A stretch of 64,000 nt of DNA from a candidate division FCPU426 bacterium (lineage in GTDB: Bacteria > Oederibacteriota > Muellerivitia > Muellerivitales > Muellerivitaceae), in the NCBI GenBank assembly GCA_963847625.1, contig CAWKAR010000022.1:34405-98404 (forward strand), in the 5' to 3' direction. This document shows, piece by piece, positions 27,984 through 43,934 of this stretch. Numbering within the stretch: position 1 is the stretch's first letter; every line of letters starts with the position of its first letter. The notes under the pieces are model-generated. The model was not told the DNA's origin, did no database searches, and worked only from the letters and a program-made list of their open reading frames with translations. Position numbers and translations under genes: made by a program.

Positions 27984-29333
27984 TTATTTTTCGCGATGAT
28001 TATTCTCTAGCCATTCCCTCAAGGAGTCATTATCCGGATCCATATCCAGGATTTTTTGATAGGCTTCCATTGATTTATCATAATAGATATGCGCCAACTT
28101 ATCCCATGCCGGTTTAAAACCAGGTTCCTTTTTAGTGGCTTTGATATACAAATCCAATGCCTCCAAGATCTCTCCTTCTTTTTCTTTTTTCTTACCCAAG
28201 TCAAGCAGTTGGCGGGCGCTCATATTCTCCTCATTCACAACTTTAAATTTGAGCAGAACAGGTTTTAAGGTTTCTTTGTTTGATAAGGATGAAACTGATT
28301 TGGGGTGGTCCCTGGACTGGTCAGTCTCTTGTTTGGAGTTTCGAGGGTTTTCATACGGGGGGAAAGACAGGGTCAGAGAAAGGCGCTGGACGTTTCCCAT
28401 ATCTCCCTCGAAGGTGAAGGAATAATCCAGTTGAAACCGGCCCAGGGCCGCGCCGGCTCCAAATCCCAGTCCATTCACGTCCCCCAAGTAGTTATCCTGC
28501 AAATCGGAGGAACAACCGGCCCGAATAAAGTAACTCCCCTGAAATGCGTACTCGAACCCGGCCTTAACGCTACTGACACCCTGGAATGCATTATCCAACT
28601 CGGCCGAGAGTAACAGCCTGTGGCGATCCCCCTCCGTCAACTCAATTCGGTAAGCCGCTCCCAATAGCAATTCCAAAGGAAGTTGATAAAACCCGCTTAC
28701 ATCCCCGATATTTTTCAGGTTCAATCCGAAGGATAGATCCGGGAGGGGTTTGGAGAGTAAACCCATGTCCCAAACCAAGCTCGAATAATCGTTGCCGCCG
28801 ATTTCCTGCTGGATCCATTGCGTTCGGAATCCGGCGAAAAGGAAATCCGCTATCGGGAAGCCGAAAGCGCCGCCAAAACTAAGGTCATAGGGGTCGTAAC
28901 TCCCCAATAAGATTCCTCCGGAATCCCTTTTTTCAATGGCTCCATAGTCGAAATAATTGAAGCCGAAGGCCAAAGTGCCGAGGTCGGATAAGGGATAAGC
29001 GACTTCGGCGGTTTCGTAATATCCGTTGGCGAGGTAGCTGTCATGCGTCAGGGATAATTCCGGGTGCCAAATTTGGGCCAAACCCGCAGGGTTATAGTGG
29101 TAAGCCGCTAAATCGTCCGCCACTGCGGCGAAGCTCTCCCCCATTCCTACCGCTCGGGCGCCCAATCCAATTGAAAGAACCGGAAAGGCGGTGGAACTGG
29201 ATGAATAAACGGTTTGCGCGGCCACTGGCATGGCCGCCAGGATCGCCAAGGGTAAGAACCAGGCAACAAGGACCCTGGAAAATTTTATTTTGGGGCAATA
29301 TTTAAATAACCATTTCAGGATTCGATAGTCCAT
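27984..29333 (-). CDS. PorV/PorQ-like outer-membrane beta-barrel with C-terminal TPR (module 1)
   Basis: Signal peptide; LSIGLGARAVGMGESFAAVADD...NPAGLA motif; amphipathic strands ending LDYSF...QRLSLTLSF; linker, then TPR helices ending DPDNDSLREWLE. Confidence 0.82.
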   Translation of the reverse strand: MDYRILKWLFKYCPKIKFSRVLVAWFLPLAILAAMPVAAQTVYSSSSTAFPVLSIGLGARAVGMGESFAAVADDLAAYHYNPAGLAQIWHPELSLTHDSYLANGYYETAEVAYPLSDLGTLAFGFNYFDYGAIEKRDSGGILLGSYDPYDLSFGGAFGFPIADFLFAGFRTQWIQQEIGGNDYSSLVWDMGLLSKPLPDLSFGLNLKNIGDVSGFYQLPLELLLGAAYRIELTEGDRHRLLLSAELDNAFQGVSSVKAGFEYAFQGSYFIRAGCSSDLQDNYLGDVNGLGFGAGAALGRFQLDYSFTFEGDMGNVQRLSLTLSFPPYENPRNSKQETDQSRDHPKSVSSLSNKETLKPVLLKFKVVNEENMSARQLLDLGKKKEKEGEILEALDLYIKATKKEPGFKPAWDKLAHIYYDKSMEAYQKILDMDPDNDSLREWLENNHREK

Positions 29334-29346
29334 CTTTTTACCCCAA

Positions 29347-30663
29347 TCAAGGCCGAATGATTGCGAATTTCACCGGTTTCGTCTTGTAGGTTCCGGAAAT
29401 CGAGGTCATTTGCAACAAGTAATAATAGATGCCGTGGGAAAAACCCGAGATATCCAGAGTTTCGGTGTTAGGTCCCGTAAGACCCTGGAATGAGTAAGTG
29501 GCCGCCAATCCTAAGCTGACGTTATAAATAGATACCTGGACCACCCCGGTTTCACACAAGGTGAAGGATAATGATAAATTCGGCTCGCTGACGGGGTTAG
29601 GATAGACGTAAGTCCCGAGGATGCCTTGGCAATGGCTTGGGGTCGGCGTCGAGGTGGGGGTGGGGGTAGATGTCAAGGGTGTCAGGGTGCCGGTGGGGGT
29701 GAGGGTCGGTTCCCACCCGCAACCTTGATAAACCGACACGGGACCACCGTTCACATTGCTCACGAAAACATTGCCGGATTTATTGACTGCCACTCCCCAG
29801 ACAACCGGTGTAGTATAAGTTGTTAATTGCGACCAATCCGGGCTGTATTTTTGGATGAAATTGCCCTGTGAAAATCCGTTATTATTAGATCCCCCCACGT
29901 AAAAATTTCCCGCCAGATCTGTTCTCATGCCAGATGGATAAGGCGGAACCGCCACCACAATGGGAGTGGGATTCGCCACAGTCGTGTCGAATTTTACGAT
30001 TGCGCCGCCATAAGTACTCGTCGCGTACAGATCATTCCCTACTTTGACAAGGGCATTAGTCCCCATAAGAATCCCAGGGCCCCCGTAGGTGGCTGTCGCC
30101 GAATAGGTGGTTCCGCTTCCGGTATATTGGTAAATATAATTCTGGGGGATTGCGGGCGTGGGAGGAGGGAGCGCGGGTATATAGACGTTCTGCTGCGAAA
30201 CACTCCCCGCTATATCTTCCACCCAAACCCCAGTGGCGCTGACGCCGGCGGCGATCGGTCCAAGATAATTGTAACCCGAATCGAATTTTTCAACCGCCGC
30301 AACCTCAAAATCCGCCACGTAAATATTTCCAAATCTGTCAACCGCCACGTCCCAGGGGTATTGGAAAGTGACAGGGTCTCCGGGTAAAGGAAAGACAGTG
30401 ACGGGGCTGAAGGTGTTGCTGTCAAATACCTGTACCACAAAGTGGGGAAAATCCGTGACGTAAAGGCGGTTTCTGGCATAATCGACAACCATACCGGCGG
30501 GCCCGCTCAATGGGTGGCCAGGGAGGCCTGTAATTTCAGTCAAGCCCTGGCAGAAAATGGAAGCAGGACAAAAAGGGGTGGAAGTTGCGGCTTGGGAAAA
30601 TCCTGATTGAGGCAATGCCCCCAAGATCAAGCCTAGAAGAATGGCCGTTTTGGTCTTTTCCAA
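29347..30663 (-). CDS. Secreted NHL beta-propeller protein with Thr/Pro linker and T9SS type-A-like C-terminal domain (module 1)
   Basis: Signal peptide; NHL-like repeats (PWDVAVDRFGNIYVAD); TPTPT linker; YVYPNP...VSIYN...GIYYY...KFAIIR tail. Confidence 0.78.
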   Translation of the reverse strand: MEKTKTAILLGLILGALPQSGFSQAATSTPFCPASIFCQGLTEITGLPGHPLSGPAGMVVDYARNRLYVTDFPHFVVQVFDSNTFSPVTVFPLPGDPVTFQYPWDVAVDRFGNIYVADFEVAAVEKFDSGYNYLGPIAAGVSATGVWVEDIAGSVSQQNVYIPALPPPTPAIPQNYIYQYTGSGTTYSATATYGGPGILMGTNALVKVGNDLYATSTYGGAIVKFDTTVANPTPIVVAVPPYPSGMRTDLAGNFYVGGSNNNGFSQGNFIQKYSPDWSQLTTYTTPVVWGVAVNKSGNVFVSNVNGGPVSVYQGCGWEPTLTPTGTLTPLTSTPTPTSTPTPSHCQGILGTYVYPNPVSEPNLSLSFTLCETGVVQVSIYNVSLGLAATYSFQGLTGPNTETLDISGFSHGIYYYLLQMTSISGTYKTKPVKFAIIRP

Positions 30664-30772
30664 TGATCAGATCCCTTACCGGTATTTCTTCCCTGATTTT
30701 AGTGGCCACCACTAAAGATGCCAGAAAAACTTTGCCGATTTTCCGGCAGACCTGGCTCGGAAGGTCATCGAA

Positions 30773-31786
30773 TTAATCGCCGAATATGACTTCCCTGGAT
30801 TGGATATTTCCCCCCGCATCCAACGTCACAGTATAGGTCCCGGGAGTAACGAGTTTTCCGTTATCGCCCCTTCCGTCCCAGCTGATGAAATTATTGCCTT
30901 CCTTGAAAACCCCGTTGAACAAAAACCTGATCAAATTCCCGGAGGCATTATAAATTTTGACCTCGCCCTGCAGGGAATTTGCCATCGGGAAGGACATGAT
31001 AACGGGAAACCCCTCGTCGGTGTGGATCTGGAGCACGGATCCTGTCGTGGGGGGGGGCCCTGCGGAAGGAGTCTGGAAAACCAATAACGAGTTGTTCGAG
31101 CTGGTCCCGGCTCCTTGGGAAGGCAAGGAAGGAGAATTTAACTTCGCGACAAGGACGCTTCCGACGATTCCATTGTCCAAGGGGGCCGCCATGGAATGAT
31201 TGGCACTACCCATTTCCCGGTAACCGGTGATTTTGCTTTTCAAGGTTGTTTTGGCCTTGGCCTTTAGCCGGGCCTTCATTCCACTCAAAACGTGATGTTT
31301 TACCTTCCTCACAGCCGTTTTTTTAATGATTGGAGTGAAGTTTGCGGTTTTCTGGACCTGCTCGGCGGTTTTCTGAATCGTACCGCTTTGATCCAATCCA
31401 GTGACAGCGGAATTCATTCCCGTTACGGCTGGACTGGTTACAGGTAGGTCGCTGGTGGCCTTCGAGGACGTATTGATCCGGAATCCGACATAAAGCAGGC
31501 CCACTACAGCGGCTATGATAAGGAGGGGCCGGAACGACCTGAAAAAGGACATCCAGGGGGAAGGTTTATACTGTTCCCAAATCGCGTCGATCTTGCTGTC
31601 CAGGTGCGAAGCGATGTCATCGATTCGCATGCCGGGGGCCGTCCCTAGCCTTTCCGCGACAGACTGAGTCACCTTTTCGGAGAATTTGGGGTCCTTTTTC
31701 ATGAGCTCGTCGAAAGCGGCTTGAGCCTCTTCCGTAAAGGATCCGTCTAGATAAATTTGGAGCAAATTGTCGGGTGTGAATTTCAT
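30773..31786 (-). CDS. Putative anti-sigma factor with single TM and C-terminal FlgD-Ig-like domain (module 1)
   Basis: N-terminal LLQIYLDGSFTEE helix, one TM, low-complexity linker, VKIYNASGNLIRFL...WDGRGDNGKLVTPGTY; ATGA overlap with the sigma gene. Confidence 0.75.
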   Translation of the reverse strand: MKFTPDNLLQIYLDGSFTEEAQAAFDELMKKDPKFSEKVTQSVAERLGTAPGMRIDDIASHLDSKIDAIWEQYKPSPWMSFFRSFRPLLIIAAVVGLLYVGFRINTSSKATSDLPVTSPAVTGMNSAVTGLDQSGTIQKTAEQVQKTANFTPIIKKTAVRKVKHHVLSGMKARLKAKAKTTLKSKITGYREMGSANHSMAAPLDNGIVGSVLVAKLNSPSLPSQGAGTSSNNSLLVFQTPSAGPPPTTGSVLQIHTDEGFPVIMSFPMANSLQGEVKIYNASGNLIRFLFNGVFKEGNNFISWDGRGDNGKLVTPGTYTVTLDAGGNIQSREVIFGD

Positions 31787-32340
31787 ATTTTAATCTCCTC
31801 CCCCTTGGGAAGTCTCTCACGGACCCGCTCGATAATTTTATTTCGGGCCCGGTATAATGTTGAAGTCACGGTACCTATGGGAATCCTGAGGCGATTGGCG
31901 ATGGCCTCGTAGGACAACCCCTTGAGATCCCGAAGGTTGACTATTTCTTTCTCACGGCCTTCCAGGTTCTCTATTTCCCGCCTCACCAGCTGTACCGTTT
32001 CTTCGGTGTAAGGGGGCTTCTGATCTATAGACGGCAAACTCGAAAAAAAATCCAAAGAAAATGGTAAATTTTTTTTCTTTTGTTCCAATAGGTCCCGGCA
32101 CAGGTTGACGGCGATATGGTTCAGCCAGGTCCCCAGGGAACACTCAAAACGGAAAAAACGCAGGTTTTTCAGGGCTTTTATGAAGGTATCCTGGATAACA
32201 TCCTCTACATCGGCGTCTTCCCCCAGGAAATACCAGCATGCGCGAATAAGGGCTTTTTTATAGGAATGATAAATGGCTTGGAAAGCCAGTTGATCACCCT
32301 TCAATACCTGGTTGACAAGATCGCGTTCGGTCTGGGCCAA
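31783..32340 (-). CDS. ECF sigma factor (module 1)
   Basis: DVEDVIQDTFIKA, LGTWLNHIAVNLCRD, GLSYEAIANRLRIPIGTVTSTLYRAR; TTG at 32340 with AAGGA SD. Confidence 0.93.
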   Translation of the reverse strand: MAQTERDLVNQVLKGDQLAFQAIYHSYKKALIRACWYFLGEDADVEDVIQDTFIKALKNLRFFRFECSLGTWLNHIAVNLCRDLLEQKKKNLPFSLDFFSSLPSIDQKPPYTEETVQLVRREIENLEGREKEIVNLRDLKGLSYEAIANRLRIPIGTVTSTLYRARNKIIERVRERLPKGEEIKI

Positions 32341-32593
32341 TGGATATTCCTTAAAAAACCCCAAAATTAGGTTAATTTTACGGCAATAAAACGGACCTAA
32401 AGAGGCCATTCCTTTAAGAACAAGGGTTTATTATTAAAAAAGGAATTGAATACCTTGTTTATAATAGAAATAGGCGATATCAATGTGGCCAAATTATACA
32501 TGATTCGGGTTATCTTTAAACTTCCTAAAATAGTCAATAATCCTGAGGTGGCAATGGGGGGGCAGGCTTCTTTTCCCTTAAAAAGGGGGTGGG

Positions 32594-32998
32594 TTATGAA
32601 CCGGATCCAACGCCAAGCTGGGTCAACACCTTTAGGCTATGGCTTGCGGCGGCCACGACTCGGGCGTTTATGGCGAATGCCGCTTTGGCGATGAGCATTT
32701 GGACCATTTCCGACGCCAGGTCGACATCCAAAGAATAGAAAAGACCCCCGGGTAAAAGATCAGAGTCCGGTGAACCTGCGGTTCCTTCAAGGCTTCCTGG
32801 TCCCACTTCCCCGTACTGTATCCCTTCCCTTCCGGCAACTCCCTGGACATTCGCAGGCAAGGCGGATTCCTGGTTCATGACTTCCGAAAATGGGACCTCC
32901 AAAGCGGAAGAAATCCTCACTCCGAGAGTATCCATCAGGGTGCTGTTGGATTGAAGCCCCGCTAATCCGTTTTCTAAAGCTGATAATCCCATTTCCAT
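32594..32998 (-). CDS. Short flagellar basal-body rod/hook-like protein (Flg_bbr_C terminal domain)
   Basis: C-terminal SLDVDLASEMVQMLIAKAAFAINARVV; N-terminal ALENGLAGLQ helix; start at 32998 or 32992 after an AGAGAGGA SD. Confidence 0.72.
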   Translation of the reverse strand: MEMGLSALENGLAGLQSNSTLMDTLGVRISSALEVPFSEVMNQESALPANVQGVAGREGIQYGEVGPGSLEGTAGSPDSDLLPGGLFYSLDVDLASEMVQMLIAKAAFAINARVVAAASHSLKVLTQLGVGSGS

Positions 32999-33011
32999 TC
33001 CTCTCTCTTTA

Positions 33012-33038
33012 TTAACGGCAAATTTATCGAAAACATGA
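33012..33038 (-). promoter_or_regulatory. Sigma28 (FliA)-like promoter
   Basis: TCATGTTT-N11-GCCGTTAA versus consensus TAAAGTTT-N11-GCCGATAA, directly upstream of the rod-like gene. Confidence 0.6.
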
Positions 33039-33092
33039 GTTATTTTTTTGGATGAGATATTTTGAAATAGGAGACCTATCGGCGGGAACTTC

Positions 33093-34298
33093 CTAAAAGA
33101 AATAAGCGTTGACCGACAAGCCCGCGTCAAAGCCGGAAAAATCCACCGAGGCCCAACTGTCCCCGCTGGGAACCTTGTCGGTCGGTTCCAGTACCAAGGC
33201 GCCTTTGAGGGTTTTATAGAGTCCGGCGGTTCCCGACCAAAGAGAAGGATTATTGCTGCTGGAAATCGTCGCGTTTCCCGTCAGCCCTGAAAAGGAGGCG
33301 TATCGCCCCCGGAGGGATAATTCGAGGCCGAATCCCGGTGAGAGCATCCACTCGTATCCCAACGCGCCGCTGAGGCAAAAACTGCCGGCCGTAAAATCCA
33401 GGGGCCCTTCGGTAAAGTCGTAGGGTGAGACGATGATCAATTGCCCGAAATAATTGACTACGGCTAAACCATATCCCGCCGCCGCCTTGAGGAAAAACCG
33501 GCCGTCTTTCTGGTTCCAAAAATGGTAATAGGCCAGTTCGGCCGAGAACAGGCTCGGCGCGGCGTCCTGGGCGAAATTATAAGTCACCGAATTACCTGAA
33601 ATGGTCGTCACCGCGAGGCCTTCCCCGGCGAAGGAAGTAAACTGGCCCCACGAAAAATCCAGGGCCAACCCGTTGGAAGGGTCCAAGAACGTGCCCCCCT
33701 CCAGGGTAAAAAGAGCCCCATCGTTACCCGCGTCGGCCTTGGCCACCGCCCGGTAAGTCTTGTGCCAGGCTGAAATGGCCTGGTTGAAATCACCCATGGC
33801 CCCGTAGGCGTAACCCCCGTATGTTTTCACCCAAAGCTTAGTGTCCGAAATTGGGTGGGATGGAATCGCCGTGGTTTCCTGGGTTTTTCTGCCCGCGTTC
33901 TCTTGATCCTGATCTCCTTTGGATCCAACCGTCTCCCCTTCGGAAGCGGCTGTTGGGGCAGAAACAGCTTCCGGATTCCCGGCCCCCAATTGGTCGGCGA
34001 ACTGCCGGAGCGAGGGATTATCCGGATGGATTTCCAGGCTCTTTCGGGCGGCCTGCAAAGCTTGGCTGTCTTTTTGAAGGCCGTGGTAGGACTTGGCCAT
34101 CACTTGGTAAACCTGCCAAAGGTCCGGCTTGATTTTCAGGGCGTTTTGGCAGAACTGGATGGCCTGGTCGTATTGGGCTTTTTCAAGGGCGTTCACCGCG
34201 GCGGCGTAGTATTGGCTGTAGGTCGTGGCATTTCCCTTGGAAAAGGAAAAAAGAAAGGGAAAAAGAAAAAGAAGGATTAGGAATTTATTCCACATCAT
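33093..34298 (-). CDS. Exported TPR + outer-membrane beta-barrel-like protein
   Basis: Signal peptide, TPR helices ending PDNPSLRQF, linker, amphipathic strands, terminal DFSGFDAGLSVNAYFF; start trimmed from 34364 to ATG 34298. Confidence 0.72.
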   Translation of the reverse strand: MMWNKFLILLFLFPFLFSFSKGNATTYSQYYAAAVNALEKAQYDQAIQFCQNALKIKPDLWQVYQVMAKSYHGLQKDSQALQAARKSLEIHPDNPSLRQFADQLGAGNPEAVSAPTAASEGETVGSKGDQDQENAGRKTQETTAIPSHPISDTKLWVKTYGGYAYGAMGDFNQAISAWHKTYRAVAKADAGNDGALFTLEGGTFLDPSNGLALDFSWGQFTSFAGEGLAVTTISGNSVTYNFAQDAAPSLFSAELAYYHFWNQKDGRFFLKAAAGYGLAVVNYFGQLIIVSPYDFTEGPLDFTAGSFCLSGALGYEWMLSPGFGLELSLRGRYASFSGLTGNATISSSNNPSLWSGTAGLYKTLKGALVLEPTDKVPSGDSWASVDFSGFDAGLSVNAYFF

Positions 34299-34381
34299 TC
34301 GCCTTCCAAATGATAAAAGCCGGTTTCCTAGGAAAAAGAAAACCGGCTTTTGTTGGAACCACATTCAAATCGGACAATCTG

Positions 34382-34867
34382 CTAATTAATGGCGGCCTCA
34401 GCCTTCATGCGGTACTGAGGCCCAACGCGCACGAGGCCCTTGCAGCTGGGCGCCCCGCACTGGCATTTGAACTCGTAGGACCAGTTCCCCACGTCGTCGG
34501 TTTCCGTGTAGTCCCAGCTGATTTCCTCGCCCGTGGAAATATCCCGGCAGGCCACCAAAACCACCCCGTTCACGACCTTTGAACTTGGTTCACAGGAATG
34601 GTTGACGAAACAGAGGGGATCGCAACCGTTCTCGTAATCGTGGAGCATGATGAAACCGGGGTAAATATACATGGCGTGGTCAATGTTCAGCTTTTCCTCG
34701 GGAACGACGCGGGAGAGTGATTCAATTGATTCCTCGGGTACCACGATCCCCCCGAACACCCCGATGACGTCGCCTTCCTTGATATCCCTGACCGCGTAAA
34801 CCCCTTTGCCTTCCATCCCGCTTTGCCTTACTTCCACTGCTTCGCTGACCCAAGGCTTTATTTTCAT
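34382..34867 (-). CDS. SET-domain protein (putative lysine methyltransferase) with post-SET zinc motif
   Basis: GKGVYA, FVNHSCEP, RDISTGEEISWDY, CQCGAPSCKG. Confidence 0.9.
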   Translation of the reverse strand: MKIKPWVSEAVEVRQSGMEGKGVYAVRDIKEGDVIGVFGGIVVPEESIESLSRVVPEEKLNIDHAMYIYPGFIMLHDYENGCDPLCFVNHSCEPSSKVVNGVVLVACRDISTGEEISWDYTETDDVGNWSYEFKCQCGAPSCKGLVRVGPQYRMKAEAAIN

Positions 34868-35120
34868 TTGTCCTTGTCTAACCGTCCTTTGTAACAGATT
34901 GAGGGTTTCCCCGCCGGCCGGGCGGGGTCCCTATATATGGGGGTGATTTTATCGCAAACCCCCCGGCGGTTCATCGGTTCTTTGGGATTTTTTTAGGGGG
35001 TTTTTAAAGGGCTTTTGCCCAAGGAGAGGTCCCCCAGGGGGGCAGAGAGGATGAAGGCTTGACCCGCCTGGGTGGCCTGAGAAACCCGTTATCGGCTTGG
35101 AGAACGAAGAGATAAAAGCC

Positions 35121-35194
35121 ACTGTGGGTTAACGACCCCGTATACAGGGTTACGGCACCTTATACTGGGTAACGCCTTCGTTTACCGGGTTGCG
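35121..35194. repeat. Imperfect 20-bp tandem direct repeats
   Basis: TATACAGGGTTACG (35141), TATACTGGGTAACG (35161), TTTACCGGGTTGCG (35181), plus a degenerate copy near 35121. Confidence 0.7.
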
Positions 35195-35234
35195 AGCCCA
35201 TGCCGCCAGGAATTCGGCTAGGGAATAATTCGGG

Positions 35235-36702: not shown

Positions 36703-36705
36703 GGA

Positions 36706-37224
36706 TTAAAAAACCAGGCCCTGGATGGCCAGCTTGCCGCCCTTGCCCGCCAGTGCTCGCACGTAGATCTTTCCGGAGCGCAGGTTGGCCAGTTCGCTTT
36801 TCCGTTTTTCGCTGAAGTAATACTTCTCAATGCCGAATGTCACCGCGTTATTGTAAAACCATTCGCCCACCACCCAAACGCCCTCCCCGGTTTTCAGGTC
36901 GGAGGGAGGAGGCACCTGGCACCGGACGGCCTGCCAGAGCGTGTATTCGATACCGCCGACATTGACCTGTCCGCCCGCCTTGAGCAATACTCCGATTTGC
37001 GCCGCCCGGCCGGGCTCGGGTTTGGGGAACCCCAGAAGCTGTTCCACCTGCGCGATCTTATACTTCAATTGCAGGTACTGGCCCGAAATCAAGTCGCGCG
37101 GATCCACGGGCAATGTCTCCAGCAATACGACCTGCCCGGAAGCCTTTATCCACTCCTCGTAACCGACCCAAGCCGAGAAAAAAAGGATTTGGACGAGAAG
37201 CGTCCACCGGACCCAGCTTTTCAT
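36706..37224 (-). CDS. GDYXXLXY-domain membrane-anchored protein
   Basis: N-terminal TM, PVDPRDLISGQYLQLKY, FGIEKYY. Confidence 0.88.
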   Translation of the reverse strand: MKSWVRWTLLVQILFFSAWVGYEEWIKASGQVVLLETLPVDPRDLISGQYLQLKYKIAQVEQLLGFPKPEPGRAAQIGVLLKAGGQVNVGGIEYTLWQAVRCQVPPPSDLKTGEGVWVVGEWFYNNAVTFGIEKYYFSEKRKSELANLRSGKIYVRALAGKGGKLAIQGLVF

Positions 37225-38593
37225 GGCTTCCCCCTTCCCGCGGCGGCCAGCAGCTTTTTACGGCCCTGGTTCAAAAGCCAGGCCGACCCGACGAAAAAGA
37301 GCCCCGCCACGATAAAGGCGACCCCGCTTTGGAGCATGGTCCCGAAATAATCGATGAACCTCGTGAAAACCAAGAGGCCAATGAGCATAATCGCCCAGTT
37401 GATTCTCTTGGGTTGTTTCAGGATGACGGCTTCCCGGATCAGCCAAAGGGCGAAACCCAAATAAGCCAGGTTGGCGGTGACGGAAGCGGTTTTCCCATCC
37501 ACCCCGGCCATGAGAAGGAGCCCCAAAATACCGGGCGCCAGGATGAATAATTTTAGGGCACGGATCATCAAAGCGGAGGAAACGGTTTTCGACAGGTCCA
37601 TGAATCCCATCAAGAGGGTGCCGGCCAGCAAAAGGACCATGGCCGAAACACCCGAAAACATCGAACCTCTTTCGTACGGCGAATCACCATGCCAGAGGAA
37701 TGTGATCGAATAAAGGCACGCGAAGGCGAGGAAAAACCCCCAGCCTTCCCAGGGATGTTGCTCTAGGCGAAAAGCGCCCCTGAGTCCCCAGAAAAGGGCC
37801 AGGATGGCGCCGGCAACGGTAAAGTGCACGATTCCTTCGGACCAGAAAGGGGTGTGGGAAAAAAGAGGGCCCAAAGGAATACCAACAGGCAAAGAAGAAT
37901 CAGCAAGCGCCCTTTGTCGCCCAGGTATTTCCTGGCCTGATAAACCGTGTAGGTCCAGAACAAGGCAACTATCAAAAAAGCCGGGCCGTAATCCTGGAGG
38001 AACTGGGGGGAAGTGCCTTCCCAGCCCGTGAATCGCCAGGATAAGCCCGGGCACTCCATCGCGAACCAGGTTCCTTGCGCGTAGGTGCCCTGGAAGGCGG
38101 CCCAGACAAGGCCGATAGTATGGAGTAAAATCAGAGGCCTGTTTCCAGTGGCCAAAACCAGGGGAAGACCCAACAAAAGCCAAATCAACAAAGGCTTCAA
38201 GGGATCACCGGACAATTGGTAAATCTGGGCCCAGAGCCCGATACCCGCCAGTGGCAGCATGAGCCAAAGGATGAGAAGGGCCGTGCGGACGGTTTTGTTT
38301 TCTGCGGGCACCCGCTGGTAGCCCTCCCCGGCCAGGGCCAGCAGGACCAGGAATCCGGCTATCTTGATAAAAGCGGGTATTTTCTCCCAGTTGTAGGAAA
38401 TCACCAGGATGATACCCAGGGCCACGCAAAGGCCGCCCAAGGCGGTCAAGAGCATCGAGGCGTTGAAGGCGTAGGTCCCCGATTCCTTTTTTGTTTTTTC
38501 AAGGATGGCTTCGGCTTGTTGGGAAGTGATGAGTTTTTCCTTCGCCCATTCCCCAACCTTTTTTTCAAGCCATTTTTCTTCCCGAAACTTCAT
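37221..38593 (-). CDS. DUF2157-family membrane protein, frameshifted near 37859-37864
   Basis: W...LITSQQAEAI, LGGLCVALGIILVISYNW, IGLWAQIYQ; continues in another frame (FSHTPFW...FTRFIDYFGTMLQSG) if one base is added to the A6 run. Confidence 0.82.
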
Positions 38594-38814
38594 TTGACCG
38601 GTCCGTTCTTTTTGGGATGCGCCATTATTTCATAAATAAAAAGCCTTAACACATTTTTATCGTTTGCCAAATCGCGGGAATTGTAATGAAAAGGGGCCTT
38701 TTTGGAATGGGCGGACGATCCAAAGAACTCTTATAAGTTCCGCTTAAGTCAGAATTTTTTCTGGGTTAAAAAACCATCCGTAATTGAAGGAAACGGTTTA
38801 AGAAAAACCCGTTA

Positions 38815-40485
38815 TCAGTAACAGTATCCAGCGTAGATGACGCCTTGTCCGGTGTTGTAAGTCGGTGGCGGCGTTGCGGCTGGCGTTGCCAATATATCCA
38901 AGTAAGGATTGGGCATGACGGCTCCGCCCCCTTCCCACGTAATCAAGGCATTCGAACCAGATGCGGCTTCCAAAAAAATCGTACTATTTATTGTACTGGC
39001 GCAGGCCAGCCAATAAGTTCCCGCGGGAAGGTTGACGCTTGGCACGACGGGAATATCATTGATCCCGGTGACCAGGGATTGGGGGGCGGATACCCAAATC
39101 AGGTCCATTGGATAACCGCTGGGGTAATTGGTATAGATGCCCACGTACCCGTAATTGGGAATTCCCATATCGACCGATATCATGGAAACCGACGCGCTTT
39201 GGGTGATGGCGTACTGTTGAGCCATCGTAGACCCGACAAAGGTTACTGGGTAGCCACCTAGGGATGCGTCCCCAAAAACAGTCGTGGAGGCACAAACAAT
39301 CGTAATAGTAGGTGTCGGGGTGTAAGGAAGTGGCGATGGGGTCGGTGTTACGGTCGATGTTCCAGTTGGAGCGGCAGTGGGGCTGTTCGTGGATGTTGGA
39401 GTCCCCGGCGGGGTCGGCGTCATAGTGGAAGTAACAGTATTTATAGAAGTCGGAGTGGAGGTCATAGTCTTCGTAGACGTGTTCATGGCCGTGTTCGTCG
39501 CAGTAGAAGTCATAGTCTTCGTAGACGTTTCCGTGACCGTGTTCGTCGCAGTAGAGGTTATAGTCTTCGTAGACGTGTTCGTGGCGGTGTGTGTGGAAGT
39601 TGGCGATGGGGGTGGGGTTGAGGTTGGAGTTCCTGGATCAGTGGTGACTGTGGGGGTGAGGGTATTTGTTGGAGATGGAGTGGACGTGGAAGAATTCGTG
39701 GGTGTAGAGGTCACCAGTTGAGTTGCTGTCGGGGTAGTCGTTTCGGTCTCGGTTTCAGTCGCGGTGGTTGTAAAAGTGTCGGTGGATGCGGGAGTCAAGA
39801 TCGGCGTCGGCGTTAGTGTGGGAGTTTTAGTATCTGTATCAATCGGGGTGAAAGTGGATGTGTCTGTAGGTATTAATGTTACCGGCTGGGTCGCGGTTTC
39901 AGTCGCGGTGGATGTGGAAGTTTCCGTGGGTGTTGAAGTCAAGATCGAGGTCGGCGTTAAGATAGGGGTTACAGTCTCAGTATCAGTGGGGGTGTAAGTG
40001 GGGGTGTCCGTGGGTGTTAAGGCCACTTGTTGGGTCAGCGTTAAAGTGGGAGTTAAGGTCGTTGTATCAGTCGGAGTGTAAGTGGGGGTGTCTGTGGGAA
40101 TGAAGGACACCGGTTGGGTCAGAGTTAAAGTGGGAGTTAAGGTCGTTGTATCAGTGGAGGTGTCTGTAGGTATTAAAGTCACCGGCTGGGTTGGCGTTAT
40201 AGTAGGAGTTACAGTCTCAGTATCAGTCGGGGTGTAAGTTGGGGTATCCGTGGGAATGAAGGACACCGGCTGGGTCGCCGTAATAGAGGGGGTAATGGTT
40301 GTTGTAAAAGTCGCAGTGTTGGTTAAAGGCGGAGTCGCGGTAATGGTGAGAGTCGTGGTTTGGGAGATGGGTAAGGCCATGGTTGGGACTGGATTTGGCG
40401 CGAAAGGCAGGGGTGCGCGCTGGCATCCCCAAAAACCCGCAAAAACCAAGACCAAACAAATAAATAAGGAATATAGAATCCTCAA
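38815..40485 (-). CDS. Thr/Pro-rich (mucin-like) lipoprotein with small C-terminal beta domain
   Basis: Lipobox-like FWGC after a hydrophobic stretch; about 350 aa Thr/Pro repeats; C-terminal VNLPAGTYWLA domain; GGAGG SD, TTG start. Confidence 0.8.
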   Translation of the reverse strand: MRILYSLFICLVLVFAGFWGCQRAPLPFAPNPVPTMALPISQTTTLTITATPPLTNTATFTTTITPSITATQPVSFIPTDTPTYTPTDTETVTPTITPTQPVTLIPTDTSTDTTTLTPTLTLTQPVSFIPTDTPTYTPTDTTTLTPTLTLTQQVALTPTDTPTYTPTDTETVTPILTPTSILTSTPTETSTSTATETATQPVTLIPTDTSTFTPIDTDTKTPTLTPTPILTPASTDTFTTTATETETETTTPTATQLVTSTPTNSSTSTPSPTNTLTPTVTTDPGTPTSTPPPSPTSTHTATNTSTKTITSTATNTVTETSTKTMTSTATNTAMNTSTKTMTSTPTSINTVTSTMTPTPPGTPTSTNSPTAAPTGTSTVTPTPSPLPYTPTPTITIVCASTTVFGDASLGGYPVTFVGSTMAQQYAITQSASVSMISVDMGIPNYGYVGIYTNYPSGYPMDLIWVSAPQSLVTGINDIPVVPSVNLPAGTYWLACASTINSTIFLEAASGSNALITWEGGGAVMPNPYLDILATPAATPPPTYNTGQGVIYAGYCY

Positions 40486-40523
40486 AAACCGCCTCCGGGA
40501 AACGATTCACAGACCGTCAATCA

Positions 40524-40552
40524 TATAGTGTTGTTTGGGCGATATTTATTCC
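40524..40552 (-). promoter_or_regulatory. Putative ECF promoter, copy 1
   Basis: GGAATAAAT-N12-ACACTATA, identical in both blocks and spacing to the copy at 42675-42703. Confidence 0.7.
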
Positions 40553-40948
40553 CTCTCGCCACCACTTTTTTTAAGGTTTTTCCAGTTTATCACAACACGG
40601 GATTATTGGTTAAAATCAGCCTTTTCGGGGGATTTGCGGTTGTTTCAAGGCAATCCCCCCTTTTTCCGAACCCTCCTTAATCCATTTAAACCCTCTTATC
40701 TCATCCCGATACATGATTTTATTGAAAGAAGTTTGGAAAATGTTTTCACGTAATAACGCAAACAACCTACCTATAGGGATTGGTAAAGGCTTTTTATTCC
40801 CGCCCGTATAAAAAATATTCCCGAACCTTAAACGTTCCCAACCCCGTTCCAACGATATAAAATATTGCCTCGTTACGCGCGTTGACGCGTTATGGAACGA
40901 ATTCAAAATATTTACGAAACATCCCGGCCGTAAAAAGGCCTATAAGCC

Positions 40949-41335
40949 ATGATGAATTTCCGCTTCCTGCGCCATTTGAATAAGCGGCTTCTATTTGCGG
41001 CCGCCTTTCTTTTAATTACCTGGCTCGCCTCACCGGCTGTTCCTTTCCAGAATCCCCAACCCGGTTCCTGTTTCGTCTATCCAGCACCCGCCACCAGCAA
41101 CTGGGCCTGGGTGGTCTATAACATGCCCCAAAACGGATCGGTCAATGTAAGGGTCTACAACGAGGCCGGGGAATTGGTTTTGGAGGTTGGCGAACCAAAA
41201 TCGGCCGGCGTCCAGGAAACGTTTATGAACCTGTTTTATCTTCGCGACGGGGTCTTCCTCTGCAGGGTATTCCTCACCCCCGATGGCGGCGTAACACAGA
41301 CACTGAAAACCTTCAAATTCACGGTGGTTCGATGA
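40949..41335 (+). CDS. Signal peptide + stand-alone T9SS type-A-like C-terminal domain (module 2)
   Basis: FVYPAP...VRVYNEAGELV...GVFLCRV...KFTVVR; parallels the tail of 29347-30663; ATGA overlap with the next gene. Confidence 0.72.
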   Translation: MMNFRFLRHLNKRLLFAAAFLLITWLASPAVPFQNPQPGSCFVYPAPATSNWAWVVYNMPQNGSVNVRVYNEAGELVLEVGEPKSAGVQETFMNLFYLRDGVFLCRVFLTPDGGVTQTLKTFKFTVVR

Positions 41336-42681
41336 AAAGGCGGTTTTTTAAAAATATCCTATGGGCCTTCTGTCCGTTTTTTCTTTGGATCCCTCTTGTT
41401 TCCTTTGCTGACCAGACCGCTTATACGACCGCTTACATTCCTTATCCTTTGGAAGACATGGGCCATTCCCCCCGGGCCGCGGCCCTGGGCTCGGCTTTCG
41501 CAGCCGTGGAAGGGGACGCCTTCTGTCTATTTGAAAACCCCGCCGGCTTGGGAAACATCCTGGAACAGCAAATTTCGCTTGTCCACCAGTCCTGGATTTC
41601 CGACATAAACCAGGAAACCCTGGTAGGTGCCTTCTCCATGGAAAAACTGGGCATCCTGGCCATCGGGGCCAATTACCTCAATTTCGGGACCATGGACGGC
41701 TACGACGCCAACGGCTTTTCCACCTCGACTTACCGGCCTTACCGCGCCTCCCTGTCCCTGGGTTGGGGGTCTTATATTTATCCAAACTTATCCCTGGGAT
41801 TCTCCCTTCGGGGTCTGGAACAATCCCTGGCTTCGGACCAGAACAACATCGCTACATCGTTAAACGCCGGTATGCTCTGGAGCTTGTCTCCACGCCTGAA
41901 AATAGGTGGTTATGGCGCCTTTCTCTATAGCGATGCTGATGCCGGCCTGGGCCAGATGAAATGGGGCGCCTCCTATACCCTGCCGGTGATCGGGGATGAC
42001 CCGGCGCTTCTTTTGGCGGATATATCCATGCCGCCCCAGGGGGTTTACAAGATCCAATGCGGAATAGAGCAGACTTTTGTATCCGTGCTGAGTGTCCGGA
42101 TTGGGAACCAATGGGAATTTAAAAACAACGAAATCGGGGGATTTCGGGGATTCGCCGCGGGTTTGGGCCTCCGTTGGAAGGGTCTTGATTTAAGCGCCAG
42201 TTTCGCCCCTGACGGGGACTTGGGCTCCTCCCTCATGCTGGGTCTGACCTATCTTATACCGGTGGAACAACCTGGCCCTCCTCCACCCCCACCCCCTCCC
42301 CCCCAAAAACCCGAACCGGCCCTGGAACCGCCGGTAACTTTCAAACCCCCGGAGAAAATTTCTCCCAATGACGAGGTGATTTGGGTGAAAATGCAATTCA
42401 AGCTTCCAGAACTGGTTTCCGGTGGAACAGCCCCATCCGTCACCCCCTCCCCGGAACGGGACCGTAAGATTGAGATCCTGGCTAAAAAAGTCCAGTCCGA
42501 TCCCCAGGATTTCCAAGCCTGGCTGGCCCTGGGAAGCCTCTATTATCAGGCTGGAAAGCCTGATTTTACGGTCCAATGCTTCGAGGAGGCCCTCCGGCTG
42601 AAACCGGACACCCCCCCCTTGAAAGCCTGGTTGGAGCAATATCACAAGCTATTTCCACCGGTTTCCGCCCCCGGGGAATAA
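41332..42681 (+). CDS. PorV/PorQ-like outer-membrane beta-barrel with poly-Pro linker and C-terminal TPR (module 2)
   Basis: Signal peptide; SPRAAALGSAFAAVEGD...NPAGLG; barrel-like strands; PPPPPPPPP; TPR AWLALGSLYY...PDTPPLKAWLEQY. Confidence 0.82.
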   Translation: MKRRFFKNILWAFCPFFLWIPLVSFADQTAYTTAYIPYPLEDMGHSPRAAALGSAFAAVEGDAFCLFENPAGLGNILEQQISLVHQSWISDINQETLVGAFSMEKLGILAIGANYLNFGTMDGYDANGFSTSTYRPYRASLSLGWGSYIYPNLSLGFSLRGLEQSLASDQNNIATSLNAGMLWSLSPRLKIGGYGAFLYSDADAGLGQMKWGASYTLPVIGDDPALLLADISMPPQGVYKIQCGIEQTFVSVLSVRIGNQWEFKNNEIGGFRGFAAGLGLRWKGLDLSASFAPDGDLGSSLMLGLTYLIPVEQPGPPPPPPPPPQKPEPALEPPVTFKPPEKISPNDEVIWVKMQFKLPELVSGGTAPSVTPSPERDRKIEILAKKVQSDPQDFQAWLALGSLYYQAGKPDFTVQCFEEALRLKPDTPPLKAWLEQYHKLFPPVSAPGE

Positions 42682-42703
42682 ATCGGGCCCTTCCGACACT
42701 ATA
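42675..42703 (+). promoter_or_regulatory. Putative ECF (autoregulatory) promoter, copy 2
   Basis: GGAATAAAT-N12-ACACTATA ending 14 nt before the ECF sigma ATG; the upstream block overlaps the barrel gene stop codon. Confidence 0.72.
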
Positions 42704-42717
42704 GAGTAAGGACAAAA

Positions 42718-43290
42718 ATGGAAAGCGAACGGGACCTAGTCAAAAAAATACTTTCCGGCGACAAGGAAGCTCAAACCCGTTTTTACCAGGAAAACGCGAG
42801 GCGCCTTTACCCCATTTGCGTGCATTTTTTGGGATACCAGGACCTCGAAGCCGAGGACCTCGTGCAAGAGGCCTTCCTCATCGCCTTCAGGAAACTCGCG
42901 CAGTTTGAGTTCCGTTCCAGCCTCTATACCTGGATGGCCCATATTTGCGTGAACCTTTGTTACGAAAGGCTGAGGAAAAGAAAACGGGAGTTGGGGACCC
43001 TACATGAGGATTTGGAACGGATGTCCCAGCCCCAAGCGGGAATTCGGTTGCAGGAGGAACAATTGGAGGCGGAAAAAAGGAGCCAGCTGGAAACCCTGGA
43101 TCGGCTGATGAAATCCATGAGCGAAAAATGCCGGCAGGTCCTGGAACTTCGGGACCGCCAGGGCATTAGTTATATCGATCTCTCCCGGAAGTTGAAGATG
43201 CCGCCCGGGACCGTGATGTCCCAATTGGCCCGTTGCCGCCAGGCCTTGAAGAGCTTGCTGGAAAGCGAACGAAGGGAAGTGGAGATTTGA
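42718..43290 (+). CDS. ECF sigma factor (module 2)
   Basis: EAEDLVQEAFLIAF, SSLYTWMAHICVN, GISYIDLS...PPGTVMSQLARCR. Confidence 0.93.
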   Translation: MESERDLVKKILSGDKEAQTRFYQENARRLYPICVHFLGYQDLEAEDLVQEAFLIAFRKLAQFEFRSSLYTWMAHICVNLCYERLRKRKRELGTLHEDLERMSQPQAGIRLQEEQLEAEKRSQLETLDRLMKSMSEKCRQVLELRDRQGISYIDLSRKLKMPPGTVMSQLARCRQALKSLLESERREVEI

Positions 43291-43934
43291 ACCCATTGGT
43301 GGAGGAATATTTCAAGCGTGACCTGACCGAGGCGGAAGAAACGCGCCTGGCCGAGATTCTCCATGCCTCTCCCGACGAGGCCTTGCGGTTCGCCCAGGGA
43401 ATGGCCGCCCATTACCTGGAGTTGGGCCTGCCCGAACCCGTATGGCCCGAAAAACCCATGGCCTATCCGGACACCCTGGTAAAACCCGTGAAGCATTTCC
43501 CCTGGTTAGGCATGTCAGTCTTTCTCTTGATACTCATCCTTTTAGGTCTCATCAAATTGAATACCGTGAAGGAATCCTTGCCTGTGTCCGCACCCGTACC
43601 CCACCCGAAGGCCCTGCTCAAGAAAAATCCCCTGGCGGTTCATCGTGAGGCGCCGCCCGCTCCCTTCCTCCCCCCAGCCGCACCGCCCAGCCGGTATGAG
43701 GAGCTTTCGGTGACCGTAGAGATGCCCCAAAGCGCCTTGGCGACGGTAAAAGTTTTCGATCAAACCGGGAACGTCGTTCGCACCCTTTTCGCGGGCATTC
43801 TCCCGTCGGGCCGGCAGACATTCATTTGGGATGGAAAAACCACCCAGGGATTGAACTCCGCGCCAGGCCTCTACACCCTCGAGGTGCGCTCGGGCCAAAA
43901 CCTGATGAAAAAACAGATCCGGTTACAGCCCTAA
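43287..43934 (+). CDS. Putative anti-sigma factor with single TM and C-terminal FlgD-Ig-like domain (module 2)
   Basis: LVEEYFKRDLTEAEE helix, one TM, Pro-rich linker, VKVFDQTGNVVRTL...WDGKTTQGLNSAPGLY; TTGA overlap with the sigma stop. Confidence 0.77.
   Translation: MNPLVEEYFKRDLTEAEETRLAEILHASPDEALRFAQGMAAHYLELGLPEPVWPEKPMAYPDTLVKPVKHFPWLGMSVFLLILILLGLIKLNTVKESLPVSAPVPHPKALLKKNPLAVHREAPPAPFLPPAAPPSRYEELSVTVEMPQSALATVKVFDQTGNVVRTLFAGILPSGRQTFIWDGKTTQGLNSAPGLYTLEVRSGQNLMKKQIRLQP

Follow-up and report, generated by a model that had tools for sequence, protein, structure and literature searches.

The window analysed here, a stretch of 64,000 nucleotides from a candidate division FCPU426 bacterium, carries two divergent copies of a four-gene cassette, each encoding an ECF sigma factor, a putative anti-sigma factor ending in an Ig domain, a CTD protein, and a PorV-like outer-membrane barrel with a TPR tail. 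We propose, with a probability of about 0.5, that each cassette is a T9SS-linked trans-envelope switch, in which the state of the CTD protein at the barrel would decide the release of the sigma factor. An initial annotation of this DNA had read the cassette as a barrel-CTD-TPR signalling system, a reading that our analysis partly supports.

Two modules and their four domain types

Both modules were found where the initial annotation had placed them, the first on the minus strand (27984-32340) and the second on the plus strand (40949-43934); gene limits are those of longest-ORF calls. In module 1, the sigma gene (31783-32340, minus; TIGR02937, 89.2 bits for a cut-off of 42.9) lies in an ORF extending to 32409. 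Judging from the upstream regions of orthologues, its true start is likely the TTG at 32340, in agreement with the start first assigned. Its end overlaps by 4 nt the anti-sigma gene (30773-31786, minus; 337 aa), the product of which consists of an N-terminal helix, one TM segment, a 159-aa linker and a C-terminal FlgD-type Ig domain (FlgD_ig, 40.7 bits, cut-off 27). The CTD gene (29347-30663, minus; 438 aa) encodes a secreted NHL beta-propeller protein (NHL, 49.2 bits) with a type-A-like CTD, which scored above the cut-off of 27 with Por_Secre_tail PF18962 (29.2) and below that of 23 with TIGR04183 (18.6), and stops 1 residue short of the C-terminus. After 13 nt comes the barrel gene (27984-29333, minus), for a 449-aa member of the PorV/PorQ family (PorV_fam NF033709, 141.2 bits, cut-off 90) that ends in a linker and a short TPR tail, the latter matched weakly by TPR models at residues 376-435.

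Module 2 opens with the CTD gene (40949-41335, plus), whose 128-aa product has no passenger, being made of a signal peptide and one 7-strand beta-sandwich. It reached none of the curated CTD cut-offs (Por_Secre_tail, 18 bits only). Fold comparison of its AF2 model (pLDDT 90.4) ranks the PorU CTD near the top, but generic Ig sandwiches match equally, so that the resemblance is unspecific. The barrel gene (41332-42681, plus; 449 aa; NF033709, 103 bits) overlaps it by 4 nt and ends in a Pro-rich linker and a two-repeat TPR tail. The sigma gene follows (42718-43290, plus; 190 aa; TIGR02937, 82.1 bits, cut-off 42.9), then the anti-sigma gene (43287-43934, plus; 215 aa; FlgD_ig, 49 bits), with an N-terminal helix, one TM segment, a 49-aa Pro-rich linker and a FlgD-type Ig domain. 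The junction is again an overlap of 4 nt, the anti-sigma TTG starting at 43287 and the sigma TGA lying at 43288-43290. In both modules the CTD gene thus stands immediately before the barrel gene, and all four domain types assigned initially were recovered.

Profile scores, sequence comparison with solved PorV, and fold all mark the barrels as PorV-like. A barrel profile matched PorV 6h3i_F with an E of 1.3e-23, and the AF2 model of the module 2 barrel (pLDDT 81) has PorV 8gl6_F and 6h3i_F as top matches (E 3e-10 to 5e-10, TMt 0.59-0.65), TodX and FadL ranking behind. The PorV, PorQ and PorV2 equivalog models gave 63, 89 and 50 bits, below their cut-offs of 250, 220 and 325. The identity of the anti-sigma factors is putative and rests on gene position, topology and the conserved N-terminal helix: 0 of 33 matched zf-HC2, and FecR-type models found none, a single DUF4880 match having an E of 0.12.

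Conservation, T9SS context and candidate promoters

The paralogues of modules 1 and 2 are only distantly related (26% identity between barrels, 31% between sigmas, 22% between anti-sigmas), as expected for the old arrangement first suggested. The same four clades, I to IV, recur in the barrel, sigma and CTD trees, which indicates that whole cassettes were duplicated long ago and then co-diversified; these trees come from fast searches, and their branch support is SH-aLRT only. The barrel of module 1 falls in clade I, and the CTD protein and sigma factor of module 2 fall in clade II. It is the CTD, rather than the passenger, that co-diversifies with barrel and sigma.

The genome, that of an uncultured organism, has a third module on contig C27. 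Cassettes number 3 to 7 per genome, and in nine genomes of the same family, including eight comparison genomes chosen by assembly quality, a sigma/anti-sigma pair adjoins 36 of the 45 barrel-TPR genes; hits were fetched from among the top matches listed, 1392 further matches lying beyond. Together with the third module, this pairing is beyond chance. Directly after 8 of the remaining 9 lies a gene for a PP2C-type membrane regulator (sCache-HAMP-SpoIIE-HATPase_c_2-HTH), so that a membrane signalling gene adjoins 44 of 45 TPR-tailed barrels. Among the non-TPR PorV paralogues of the genome itself, 0 of 12 are on a contig with an ECF sigma gene. A survey with HMMs built on this genome's own paralogues found module-type sigma factors (at least 184 bits) in 30/30 genomes of family f1 and in 5/68 other genomes of the phylum, with a full module in family f11.

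The initial annotation had missed further T9SS genes in the window, but the genome does encode the SprA translocon and about 125 CTD proteins; profile searches of it found no match for PorU, nor for GldK/L/M/N, the controls being likewise silent for GldL/M/N. Passengers of the cassette CTD proteins are of ligand-binding types, an NHL propeller in module 1 and PA14 plus CBM9 or lectin-like domains in other clades; those of clade II are bare CTDs.

An ECF-type promoter-like motif, GGAATAAA-N14-CACTA, is found near 15 of 36 sigma starts (clade II 6/8, III 4/6, IV 5/14, I 0/7, X 0/1), and its strict matches in the genome number 24 against about 5 expected by composition. In module 2 it reads GGAATAAATCGGGCCCTTCCGACACTA (42675..42701, plus) and ends 16 nt ahead of the sigma start; in modules ordered CTD, barrel, sigma, anti-sigma (CBSA), it sits between barrel and sigma. 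It also occurs upstream of flanking genes for secreted proteins, including CTD proteins of 1088 to 2792 aa. Within the window, one match (40526..40552, minus) ends 40 nt ahead of a gene (38815..40485, minus) for a 556-aa Thr/Pro-rich secreted protein of no Pfam family, a candidate target of sigma 2. At the clade I sigma genes, that of module 1 included, a sigma-70-like promoter is found instead: of the 7 modules, 5 have TGTATAAT or GCTATAAT close to where the sigma gene begins, and upstream of sigma 1 the sequence TTTAAA-16-TATAAT (32493..32520, minus) lies within TGTATAAT.

Predicted tail contact, proposed switch and competing explanations

The C-terminus of the barrel is a disordered linker followed by two TPR repeats. 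Since paralogues bear OmpA peptidoglycan-binding domains in that position, it is expected to lie in the periplasm. Complex prediction for the cognate pair of module 2 (barrel residues 27-449, anti-sigma residues 91-215) gave a score of 0.61, a measure of the model's own confidence, against 0.00-0.01 for three controls (best 0.01). Among solved complexes, 116 of 157 attain the mark that it passed, as do 2 of 215 mismatched pairs, counts that are only rough here because our own alignments were supplied. At least 85% of contacts are common to the runs, with partner pLDDT of at least 70. On the barrel protein the predicted interface comprises residues 331-362 and TPR helices 381-422, and on the anti-sigma it comprises Ig residues 132-215; none of the barrel-domain residues (27-310) takes part in it with confidence. 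The tail is thus predicted to bind the periplasmic Ig domain, in line with the relay from tail to anti-sigma that the initial annotation had supposed. Every check that could be run favoured that annotation, and none of the contrary outcomes it had set beforehand was found.

In the switch that we propose, the linker-plus-TPR tail would hold the Ig-like domain of the single-pass anti-sigma. The CTD protein would be exported, presumably through the SprA translocon, be captured by its own barrel as cargo CTDs are by PorV, and probably stay there, since the PorU sortase was not found. The tail's grip on the anti-sigma may then change with occupancy, with a ligand bound by the passenger, or with CTD protein backing up in the periplasm. 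Once freed, the anti-sigma would be degraded; the released sigma would transcribe its own operon and nearby genes for secreted proteins, possibly that of the 556-aa protein. Within this scheme, export or occupancy status is the somewhat better candidate for the signal, because co-diversification with barrel and sigma is seen for the CTD and not for its passenger, and because a passenger is absent altogether from clade II; an outside ligand is somewhat less probable.

A different use of the CTD is suggested by P. gingivalis, where the PorA CTD binds PorV and feeds PorXY-SigP (available text of PMC7712824). The available text of PMC12152298 describes PorA as acting directly on the inner-membrane sensor, its CTD binding PorY in the periplasm: PorA tethered to the inner membrane still signals, its lectin-like passenger is dispensable for signalling, and signalling is proposed to increase with a backlog. 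By analogy, and with these findings in its favour as regards the signal step, a periplasmic CTD protein could bind the anti-sigma Ig domain directly, the barrel only exporting or anchoring it and setting its level; the tail contact would be secondary or false, and the cassette would report export capacity with no outside signal. This alternative to a barrel-docked CTD antenna is live but, in our estimate, unlikely. The bare CTDs of clade II agree with it, as does the fact that barrel and sigma clades are tracked by the CTD and not the passenger, but the complex prediction seats the Ig domain on the barrel tail, and a mere exporter does not explain why TPR tails are confined to barrels beside membrane regulators (44/45, against 0/12 other paralogues).

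That same specificity of the tail, the predicted tail-Ig complex and the common clades of sigma, barrel and CTD also weigh against plain co-regulation, by which the sigma pair would answer generic envelope stress and switch on cargo plus a dedicated PorV-like carrier, with no contact between barrel and anti-sigma. We regard this as quite improbable, even though CTD-then-barrel gene pairs are general in the genome (11 of 16 PorV paralogues) and, outside family f1, occur without a sigma gene (5/6 on the same strand, 0/6 with sigma). In SACB and SABC modules the four genes follow the sigma promoter at close spacing, as in a self-regulated operon, but in CBSA modules the CTD and barrel genes lie ahead of the motif. 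Finally, the FlgD-type Ig domain might mimic the CTDs of "WDG" class cargo, with unsecreted cargo competing for the TPR tail, so that the switch would gauge how far many cargo proteins have backed up in the periplasm. For about 58 of the 125 CTDs the anti-sigma Ig type is indeed the closer one, ahead of the module CTD type, and many of these CTDs are on proteins of 1600-2100 aa. The profile of the anti-sigma domains nevertheless gives 65-95 bits for the domains themselves and at most 37 for any cargo, and it matches structures of flagellar FlgD and no T9SS CTD structure; we consider this explanation very improbable.

Relation to known systems

The logic proposed for the cassette is that of FecA/FecR/FecI-type systems, in which a periplasmic extension of a TonB-dependent transducer barrel contacts a single-pass anti-sigma holding an ECF sigma, the sigma often being autoregulated. 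The parts differ: the barrel is of PorV/FadL type instead of a 22-strand transducer and has no evident TonB box, the extension is a C-terminal TPR tail where those systems have an N-terminal signalling domain, the anti-sigma carries a FlgD-type Ig domain in place of a FecR domain, and the CTD protein is an additional fourth part. Several paralogous sigma/anti-sigma pairs also occur as SigI/RsgI in cellulolytic clostridia, plant-biomass degraders with extracellular carbohydrate-binding sensor modules; these hosts are Gram-positive, the sensor module is within the anti-sigma itself, and we know of no outer-membrane component.

For the barrel, the best match in sequence and fold is PorV of the SprA translocon (PDB 6h3i, 8gl6), which has no TPR tail; 8gl6 is, by its entry title, PorV in complex with a bound cargo CTD. 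In the PorE system, as given in the available text of PMC9143113, a cargo gene is likewise paired with its own surface-anchoring barrel, and periplasmic TPR/OmpA parts associate with that barrel. There, however, the barrel is PorP/SprF-like and not PorV/PorQ, the CTD is of type B where that of the cassette is A-like, PorE supplies the TPR/OmpA parts as a protein of its own whereas they are barrel-fused in the cassette family, and that text gives no link to a sigma factor.

The nearest known relative of the cassette is the PorA-PorV-PorXY-SigP circuit. According to the available texts of PMC7712824 and PMC12152298, a small CTD protein with a lectin-like passenger there binds PorV through its CTD, which is itself the signalling part, and controls an ECF sigma; a corresponding role is proposed for the CTD protein of the cassette. 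As far as these texts go, the PorA circuit is one per cell, runs through a two-component system without a dedicated anti-sigma, and uses PorV as a tail-less general shuttle. The cassette, in contrast, is self-contained, with its own TPR-tailed PorV paralogue and Ig-domain anti-sigma, and occurs 3 to 7 times in each genome, in a phylum other than the Bacteroidota, PorU and PorKLMN being undetected. A literature search found no paper describing the four-gene cassette, in line with the initial annotation, which knew of no description. The cassette is likely an undescribed route for signals across the bacterial envelope.

Organisation of the two modules

ORF calling retrieved the eight module genes at the positions proposed in the initial annotation. 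Module 1, on the minus strand, is composed of a PorV-family barrel with a TPR tail (barrel 1, 449 aa, 27984-29333, NF033709), an NHL protein with a C-terminal sorting domain (438 aa, 29347-30663), a single-pass anti-sigma factor ending in a FlgD-type Ig domain (anti-sigma 1, 337 aa, 30773-31786) and an ECF sigma factor (sigma 1, 31783-32409, with a likely TTG start at 32340). In module 2, on the plus strand, the order is a 128-aa protein (40949-41335) with a signal peptide and nothing else but a sorting-type domain, hereafter the CTD-only protein (CTD standing for the type IX sorting-type C-terminal domain), a second PorV-family barrel with TPR (barrel 2, 449 aa, 41332-42681, NF033709), sigma 2 (42718-43290) and anti-sigma 2 (43287-43934). 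The arrangement noticed earlier also held: sigma and anti-sigma genes overlap by 4 nt in both modules, a sorting-domain gene abuts each barrel gene, and the paralogues of the two modules are indeed divergent (22-31% identity). Both sigma factors match TIGR02937 (89.2 and 82.1 bits, cut-off 42.9), as well as Sigma70_r2 and r4_2.

Several neighbouring genes deserve mention. Between module 1 and a gene for a TPR-barrel protein lies a 178-aa ORF (32594-33130, minus strand) that matches Flg_bbr_C weakly (24.7 bits for a cut-off of 23) and is missing from the orthologous region of a same-genus genome. The TPR-barrel protein itself (423 aa, 33093-34364, minus strand) has N-terminal TPR repeats and an outer-membrane-barrel-like C-terminal part ending in NAYFF; it has paralogues on three other contigs of the genome (C50, C63 and C25, E 1e-26 to 1e-34), and its orthologue is found directly upstream of a module-1-type sigma gene in a same-genus genome (locus L069). 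Module 2 is adjoined by genes for two large proteins of 1032 and 1134 aa (43975-47073 and 47238-50639, minus strand), the first with a weak match to GH5 cellulases (23.9 bits, cut-off 23.5). The ECF-type promoter motif described below was not found before either of them.

The rest of the window holds the dcw cluster, glpK, pfk, queCE, carAB, pyrC and pyrR, and no Rfam family was detected in it. For murE, in the dcw cluster, two ORFs were called (6640-7206 and 7251-8111, minus strand), one for the N-terminal 287 aa and one for the C-terminal 189 aa; the gene may be split, or a frameshift or an error of assembly may account for the break. In the same cell-division cluster, a gene for a STAS-type anti-sigma-factor antagonist (11976-12338, minus strand) is placed between mraZ and rsmH. 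An IS4-family transposase gene (50762-51928, minus strand, 251.9 bits for a cut-off of 115) coincides with a strong positive GC skew.

Conservation of the cassette in the phylum

A third module was found on another contig of the genome (C27), with genes for an NHL/CTD protein, a barrel-TPR, a sigma and an anti-sigma factor, followed by one for a 2792-aa NHL CTD protein. When a profile of the four TPR-tailed barrels of the genome was used, PorV-family genes were detected in all 99 genomes of the phylum; among the matches listed, those of full length, tail included, were concentrated in the family to which the window belongs (f1). Neighbourhoods were collected from eight well-assembled f1 genomes, 6 kb on each side of the TPR-tailed hits among the matches listed (1392 weaker matches lay outside), and annotated with our own profiles. 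Over the nine genomes thus compared, a sigma/anti-sigma pair adjoined 36 of the 45 TPR-tailed barrels among the matches listed, so that the four-gene neighbourhood first seen in a single window is conserved. Among these same matches, the order sigma, anti-sigma, CTD, barrel was encountered 16 times (plus one mis-called case), CTD, barrel, sigma, anti-sigma 12 times, and sigma, anti-sigma, barrel, CTD 6 times; in one further module sigma and anti-sigma were read as a single ORF. Eight of the 45 listed barrels form a separate lineage with an sCache-HAMP-SpoIIE-HATPase_c_2-HTH regulator, and one has neither the pair nor the regulator. A membrane signalling gene is thus present beside 44 of the 45 TPR-tailed barrels listed. 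ECF sigma genes are absent from the contigs that carry the remaining 12 PorV paralogues of the genome.

The regulator-linked lineage, the fifth of the TPR-tailed barrels (C28:160556-170464, locus L034; orthologous loci L070, L076, L079, L085, L091, L097 and L108), has the same gene order in 8 of 8 genomes: a CTD protein of 1331 to about 2000 aa, a 550-aa barrel-TPR, directly after it an sCache-HAMP-SpoIIE(PP2C)-HATPase_c_2-HTH regulator of 800-857 aa, and then a 380-aa TPR protein. Here the same kind of outer-membrane receptor seems to be coupled to a partner-switching regulator rather than to an anti-sigma factor.

Trees of the barrels, of the sigma factors and of the C-terminal 95 residues of the CTD proteins, all obtained by quick searches with SH-aLRT support only, returned the same four clades (I to IV, module 1 belonging to clade I and module 2 to clade II), and gene order is constant inside each clade. 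From this we infer that the cassettes were duplicated as units before the f1 genera split, and that their genes have stayed together since. The agreement between the CTD and barrel trees is also indirect evidence that the barrels may bind the CTDs of their cargo. Module-type sigma factors are well separated by score, as they reach at least 184 bits and all other sigma factors at most 146; each of the 30 f1 genomes has them, as do 5 of the 68 other genomes of the phylum. Outside f1, one genome of family f11 has the cassette complete, its CTD-only protein being 149 aa long, and some module-type sigma genes of families f10 and f11 lie beside a barrel without TPR or beside giant proteins. No sigma gene was found beside six TPR-tailed barrels from outside f1, which follow CTD genes. 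A scan of public contigs with sigma 2 as single protein gave two MAG loci only, which were left out of the results.

Barrels, sorting domains and anti-sigma factors

The proposed kinship of the barrels with PorV and PorQ was confirmed by NF033709 (141.2 bits for barrel 1 and 103 for barrel 2, cut-off 90), a model matched by 16 genes of the genome, 12 of them above cut-off. On the models for PorV (NF033710), PorQ (NF033711) and PorV2 (NF052325), barrel 1 scored 63.3, 89.3 and 49.7 bits, and barrel 2 scored 35.2, 87.7 and 17.1 bits, all below the respective cut-offs of 250, 220 and 325. Judged from these sequence models, the barrels are members of the PorV/PorQ family, and not orthologues of PorV, PorQ or PorV2. 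An AF2 model of barrel 2 (44-row alignment, pLDDT 81) has short N-terminal helices followed by the barrel (residues 79-309), a disordered stretch (310-372) and four helices corresponding to two TPR repeats (374-440). Foldseek placed the PorV chains of the solved translocon (8gl6_F and 6h3i_F) above TodX and FadL for this model, so that a plain FadL-type transporter is not what it resembles most, and the barrel sequence profile matched PorV 6h3i_F at E 1.3e-23. The tails of the 16 PorV-family proteins of the genome are of four kinds: four OmpA, four fn3, four TPR and four without tail. Because an OmpA peptidoglycan-binding domain can occupy this position, the tail is argued to be periplasmic. 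In three of the four OmpA-tailed paralogues, a FlgD-type Ig domain is found in between.

A gene with a sorting-type domain lies directly 5′ of the barrel for 11 of the 16 PorV-family genes. Most of the 12 paralogues with OmpA, fn3 or no tail (loci L027-L033, L036 and L037) come directly after the gene of a large CTD protein with a lectin, fn3, subtilase or SBBP propeller part, which suggests one dedicated barrel per cargo. With a profile made from the tails that precede barrels, 125 CTD proteins were counted in the genome, and 107 of the 125 domains end exactly at the C-terminus. The domain of the NHL protein scored above cut-off on PF18962 (29.2 for 27) and below it on TIGR04183 (18.6 for 23); the CTD-only protein was below both cut-offs (18 and 17.1 bits). 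Orthologues attain up to 36.4 bits. The AF2 model of the CTD-only protein (pLDDT 90.4) is a 7-strand sandwich spanning residues 41-126 of 128, in keeping with the form of type A CTDs, which are Ig-like beta-sandwiches of about 80 aa placed at the very C-terminus. Foldseek returned the PorU CTD (6za2_A, rmsd 3.0) among the top hits of this model, unrelated Ig folds being equally close, so that the match is not specific. The module-CTD profile, run against PDB sequences, matched CTDs weakly (8glj_D at E 0.021, PorU at E 0.029); its top rows were discarded as spurious repeat matches with no aligned stretch. The passengers carried by the CTD proteins are of ligand-binding kinds, namely NHL or SBBP propellers in clades I and III, and PA14 plus CBM9, or a ConA-like lectin, in clade IV. 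Clade II CTD proteins have no passenger.

The window was described as devoid of other T9SS genes, and none was found among 40 other ORFs of it at E 1e-10 or better. Elsewhere in the genome (4.43 Mb in 63 contigs, 94% complete), the SprA/Sov translocon is present as a 2013-aa ORF (TIGR04189, 236.1 bits, cut-off 200). The search for the PorU sortase yielded a match limited to its C-terminal domain, that for GldK generic C-terminal matches of 72 bits or less for a cut-off of 350, and that for GldL, GldM and GldN no match, the control genomes being equally silent.

The anti-sigma factors have a common layout: a conserved helix at the N-terminus, a single TM segment, a linker of 46-167 residues that is rich in Pro or in Ser/Thr, and a C-terminal Ig domain, the latter matched by Pfam FlgD_ig in all 33 members and by the solved flagellar FlgD at E 2.8e-12. 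At the N-terminus, the known anti-sigma domain models were not recognised (zf-HC2 in none of the 33, DUF4880 in one at E 0.12), and the assignment is made because of the overlap with the sigma gene, the single TM segment and the conserved helix. In the ESM Atlas, all matches of anti-sigma 2 were below 0.9 and are taken as leads only (Bacteroidota CTD clusters and one Ignavibacteriota zf-HC2 cluster). We also considered that the Ig domain copies the CTD of its own module. This was ruled out, since its identity is 16% with own CTDs and 17% with those of other clades, compared to 37% within each family. By sequence comparison, the Ig domains of the anti-sigma factors form one subfamily and the module CTDs another, without cognate likeness. 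About 58 of the 125 cargo CTDs of the genome lean to the anti-sigma Ig type.

Promoter motif, predicted contact and proposed signalling

Many sigma genes of clades II to IV are preceded by an ECF-type promoter-like motif, GGAATAAA-N14-CACTA, whose general form is GGAATA(A/T)(A/T)-N12-15-(C)ACTA and whose end lies about 16 nt before the start codon. It was found near 15 of 36 sigma starts in the modules among the matches listed (clade II, 6/8; III, 4/6; IV, 5/14; I, 0/7; X, 0/1). Clade I sigma genes have instead TGTATAAT about 80 nt upstream. The motif also precedes flanking genes: in the window, at 40526-40552, a divergent one for a 556-aa Thr/Pro-rich protein; on contig C27, that for the 2792-aa NHL protein; and at other loci, those for CTD proteins of 1088 and 1300 aa, a serpin and others. 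Strict matches number 24 in the genome, compared to about 5 expected from base composition; two NHL proteins and one CTD protein of 940 aa are among them.

A complex was predicted for barrel 2 (residues 27-449) and anti-sigma 2, the latter limited to its periplasmic part (residues 91-215). This complex scored 0.61, the best of three controls 0.01; the mark passed here is reached by 116 of 157 solved complexes and by 2 of 215 mismatched pairs, rates that are rough in our case as own alignments were used. At least 85% of the contacts agreed between runs, and partner pLDDT was at least 70. On the barrel 2 side, the confident interface consists of the pre-TPR stretch 331-362, which contains the nearly invariant F356, and of TPR helices 381-422; on the other side it covers Ig residues 132-215. 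The barrel proper contributes no residue to it. We are aware of no solved TPR/FlgD-Ig complex whose memorisation by the model would account for this pass, and the prediction supports binding of the barrel 2 tail to the anti-sigma 2 Ig domain. Residue patterns at the interface differ between clade I and clades II-IV, a difference indistinguishable from shared ancestry and hence not counted as covariation. Residue 416 of barrel 2 (about 42577-42579), in the second TPR repeat and within the predicted interface, is a Cys in a QC motif; it is kept in nearly all clade II-IV barrels and absent from clade I and from the regulator-linked lineage.

The predicted contact has to be weighed against another scheme, in which the CTD protein itself would bind the anti-sigma factor in the periplasm, as PorA does with its own partner. 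In P. gingivalis, the PorA CTD is reported to bind PorV and PorA acts upstream of PorXY-SigP (PMC7712824), and the PorA CTD itself binds PorY in the periplasm, the lectin-like passenger being dispensable (PMC12152298). Because of this last result we keep such direct binding in consideration, as an unlikely explanation.

The cassette is read here as a T9SS-linked trans-envelope switch, whose signal step we infer. The barrel tail would hold the anti-sigma factor, and the cognate CTD protein would set the state, whether through docking on the barrel, through ligand binding or through accumulation in the periplasm; once released, the sigma factor would drive its own operon and nearby genes for secreted proteins. 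At a probability of about 0.4, each copy would combine an exchangeable surface "antenna" protein, plugged in by its sorting tag, with a TPR tail in the periplasm that connects to the anti-sigma factor of that copy; in one lineage, a PP2C partner-switching regulator would take the place of the anti-sigma factor.

In its way of working the cassette would resemble cell-surface signalling, yet it is outside the FecA/FecR/FecI family. In that family a TonB-dependent transducer, whose signalling domain is N-terminal, serves at the outer membrane; here a PorV-family barrel does, and its TPR tail is C-terminal. The cargo-barrel pairs and fused tails of the cassette have a parallel in PorP-like barrels, which anchor CTD proteins of type B together with PorE, a TPR/OmpA protein (PMC9143113). 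In full-text searches on PorV/PorQ, type IX secretion and ECF/anti-sigma factors, the PorA papers were the sole related work found. The main text of the ECF re-classification preprint mentions type IX secretion in one reference only; its supplements may list such a group.

To our knowledge, trans-envelope signalling to ECF sigma factors relies almost only on TonB-dependent transducers. The cassette would depart from these in its barrel family, in the contact made (TPR tail to Ig domain) and in having an extra secretion-tagged part, and it would tie gene control to the type IX sorting route, a link that we know so far only from the single PorA-PorXY-SigP circuit of P. gingivalis. In that circuit, how PorV-bound PorA communicates with the inner membrane remains a matter of debate, and the cassette, with its four genes, defined promoter motif and predicted interface, would offer a compact and testable model of this link. 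Its orthogonal sigma/anti-sigma/promoter sets are possible parts for synthetic biology. If the antenna-and-tail reading is true, an uncultured, plant-biomass-degrading phylum would hold a second, independent invention of cell-surface signalling, in several parallel copies, and the cassette suggests how uncultured cellulose degraders may match enzyme output to substrate or export capacity.
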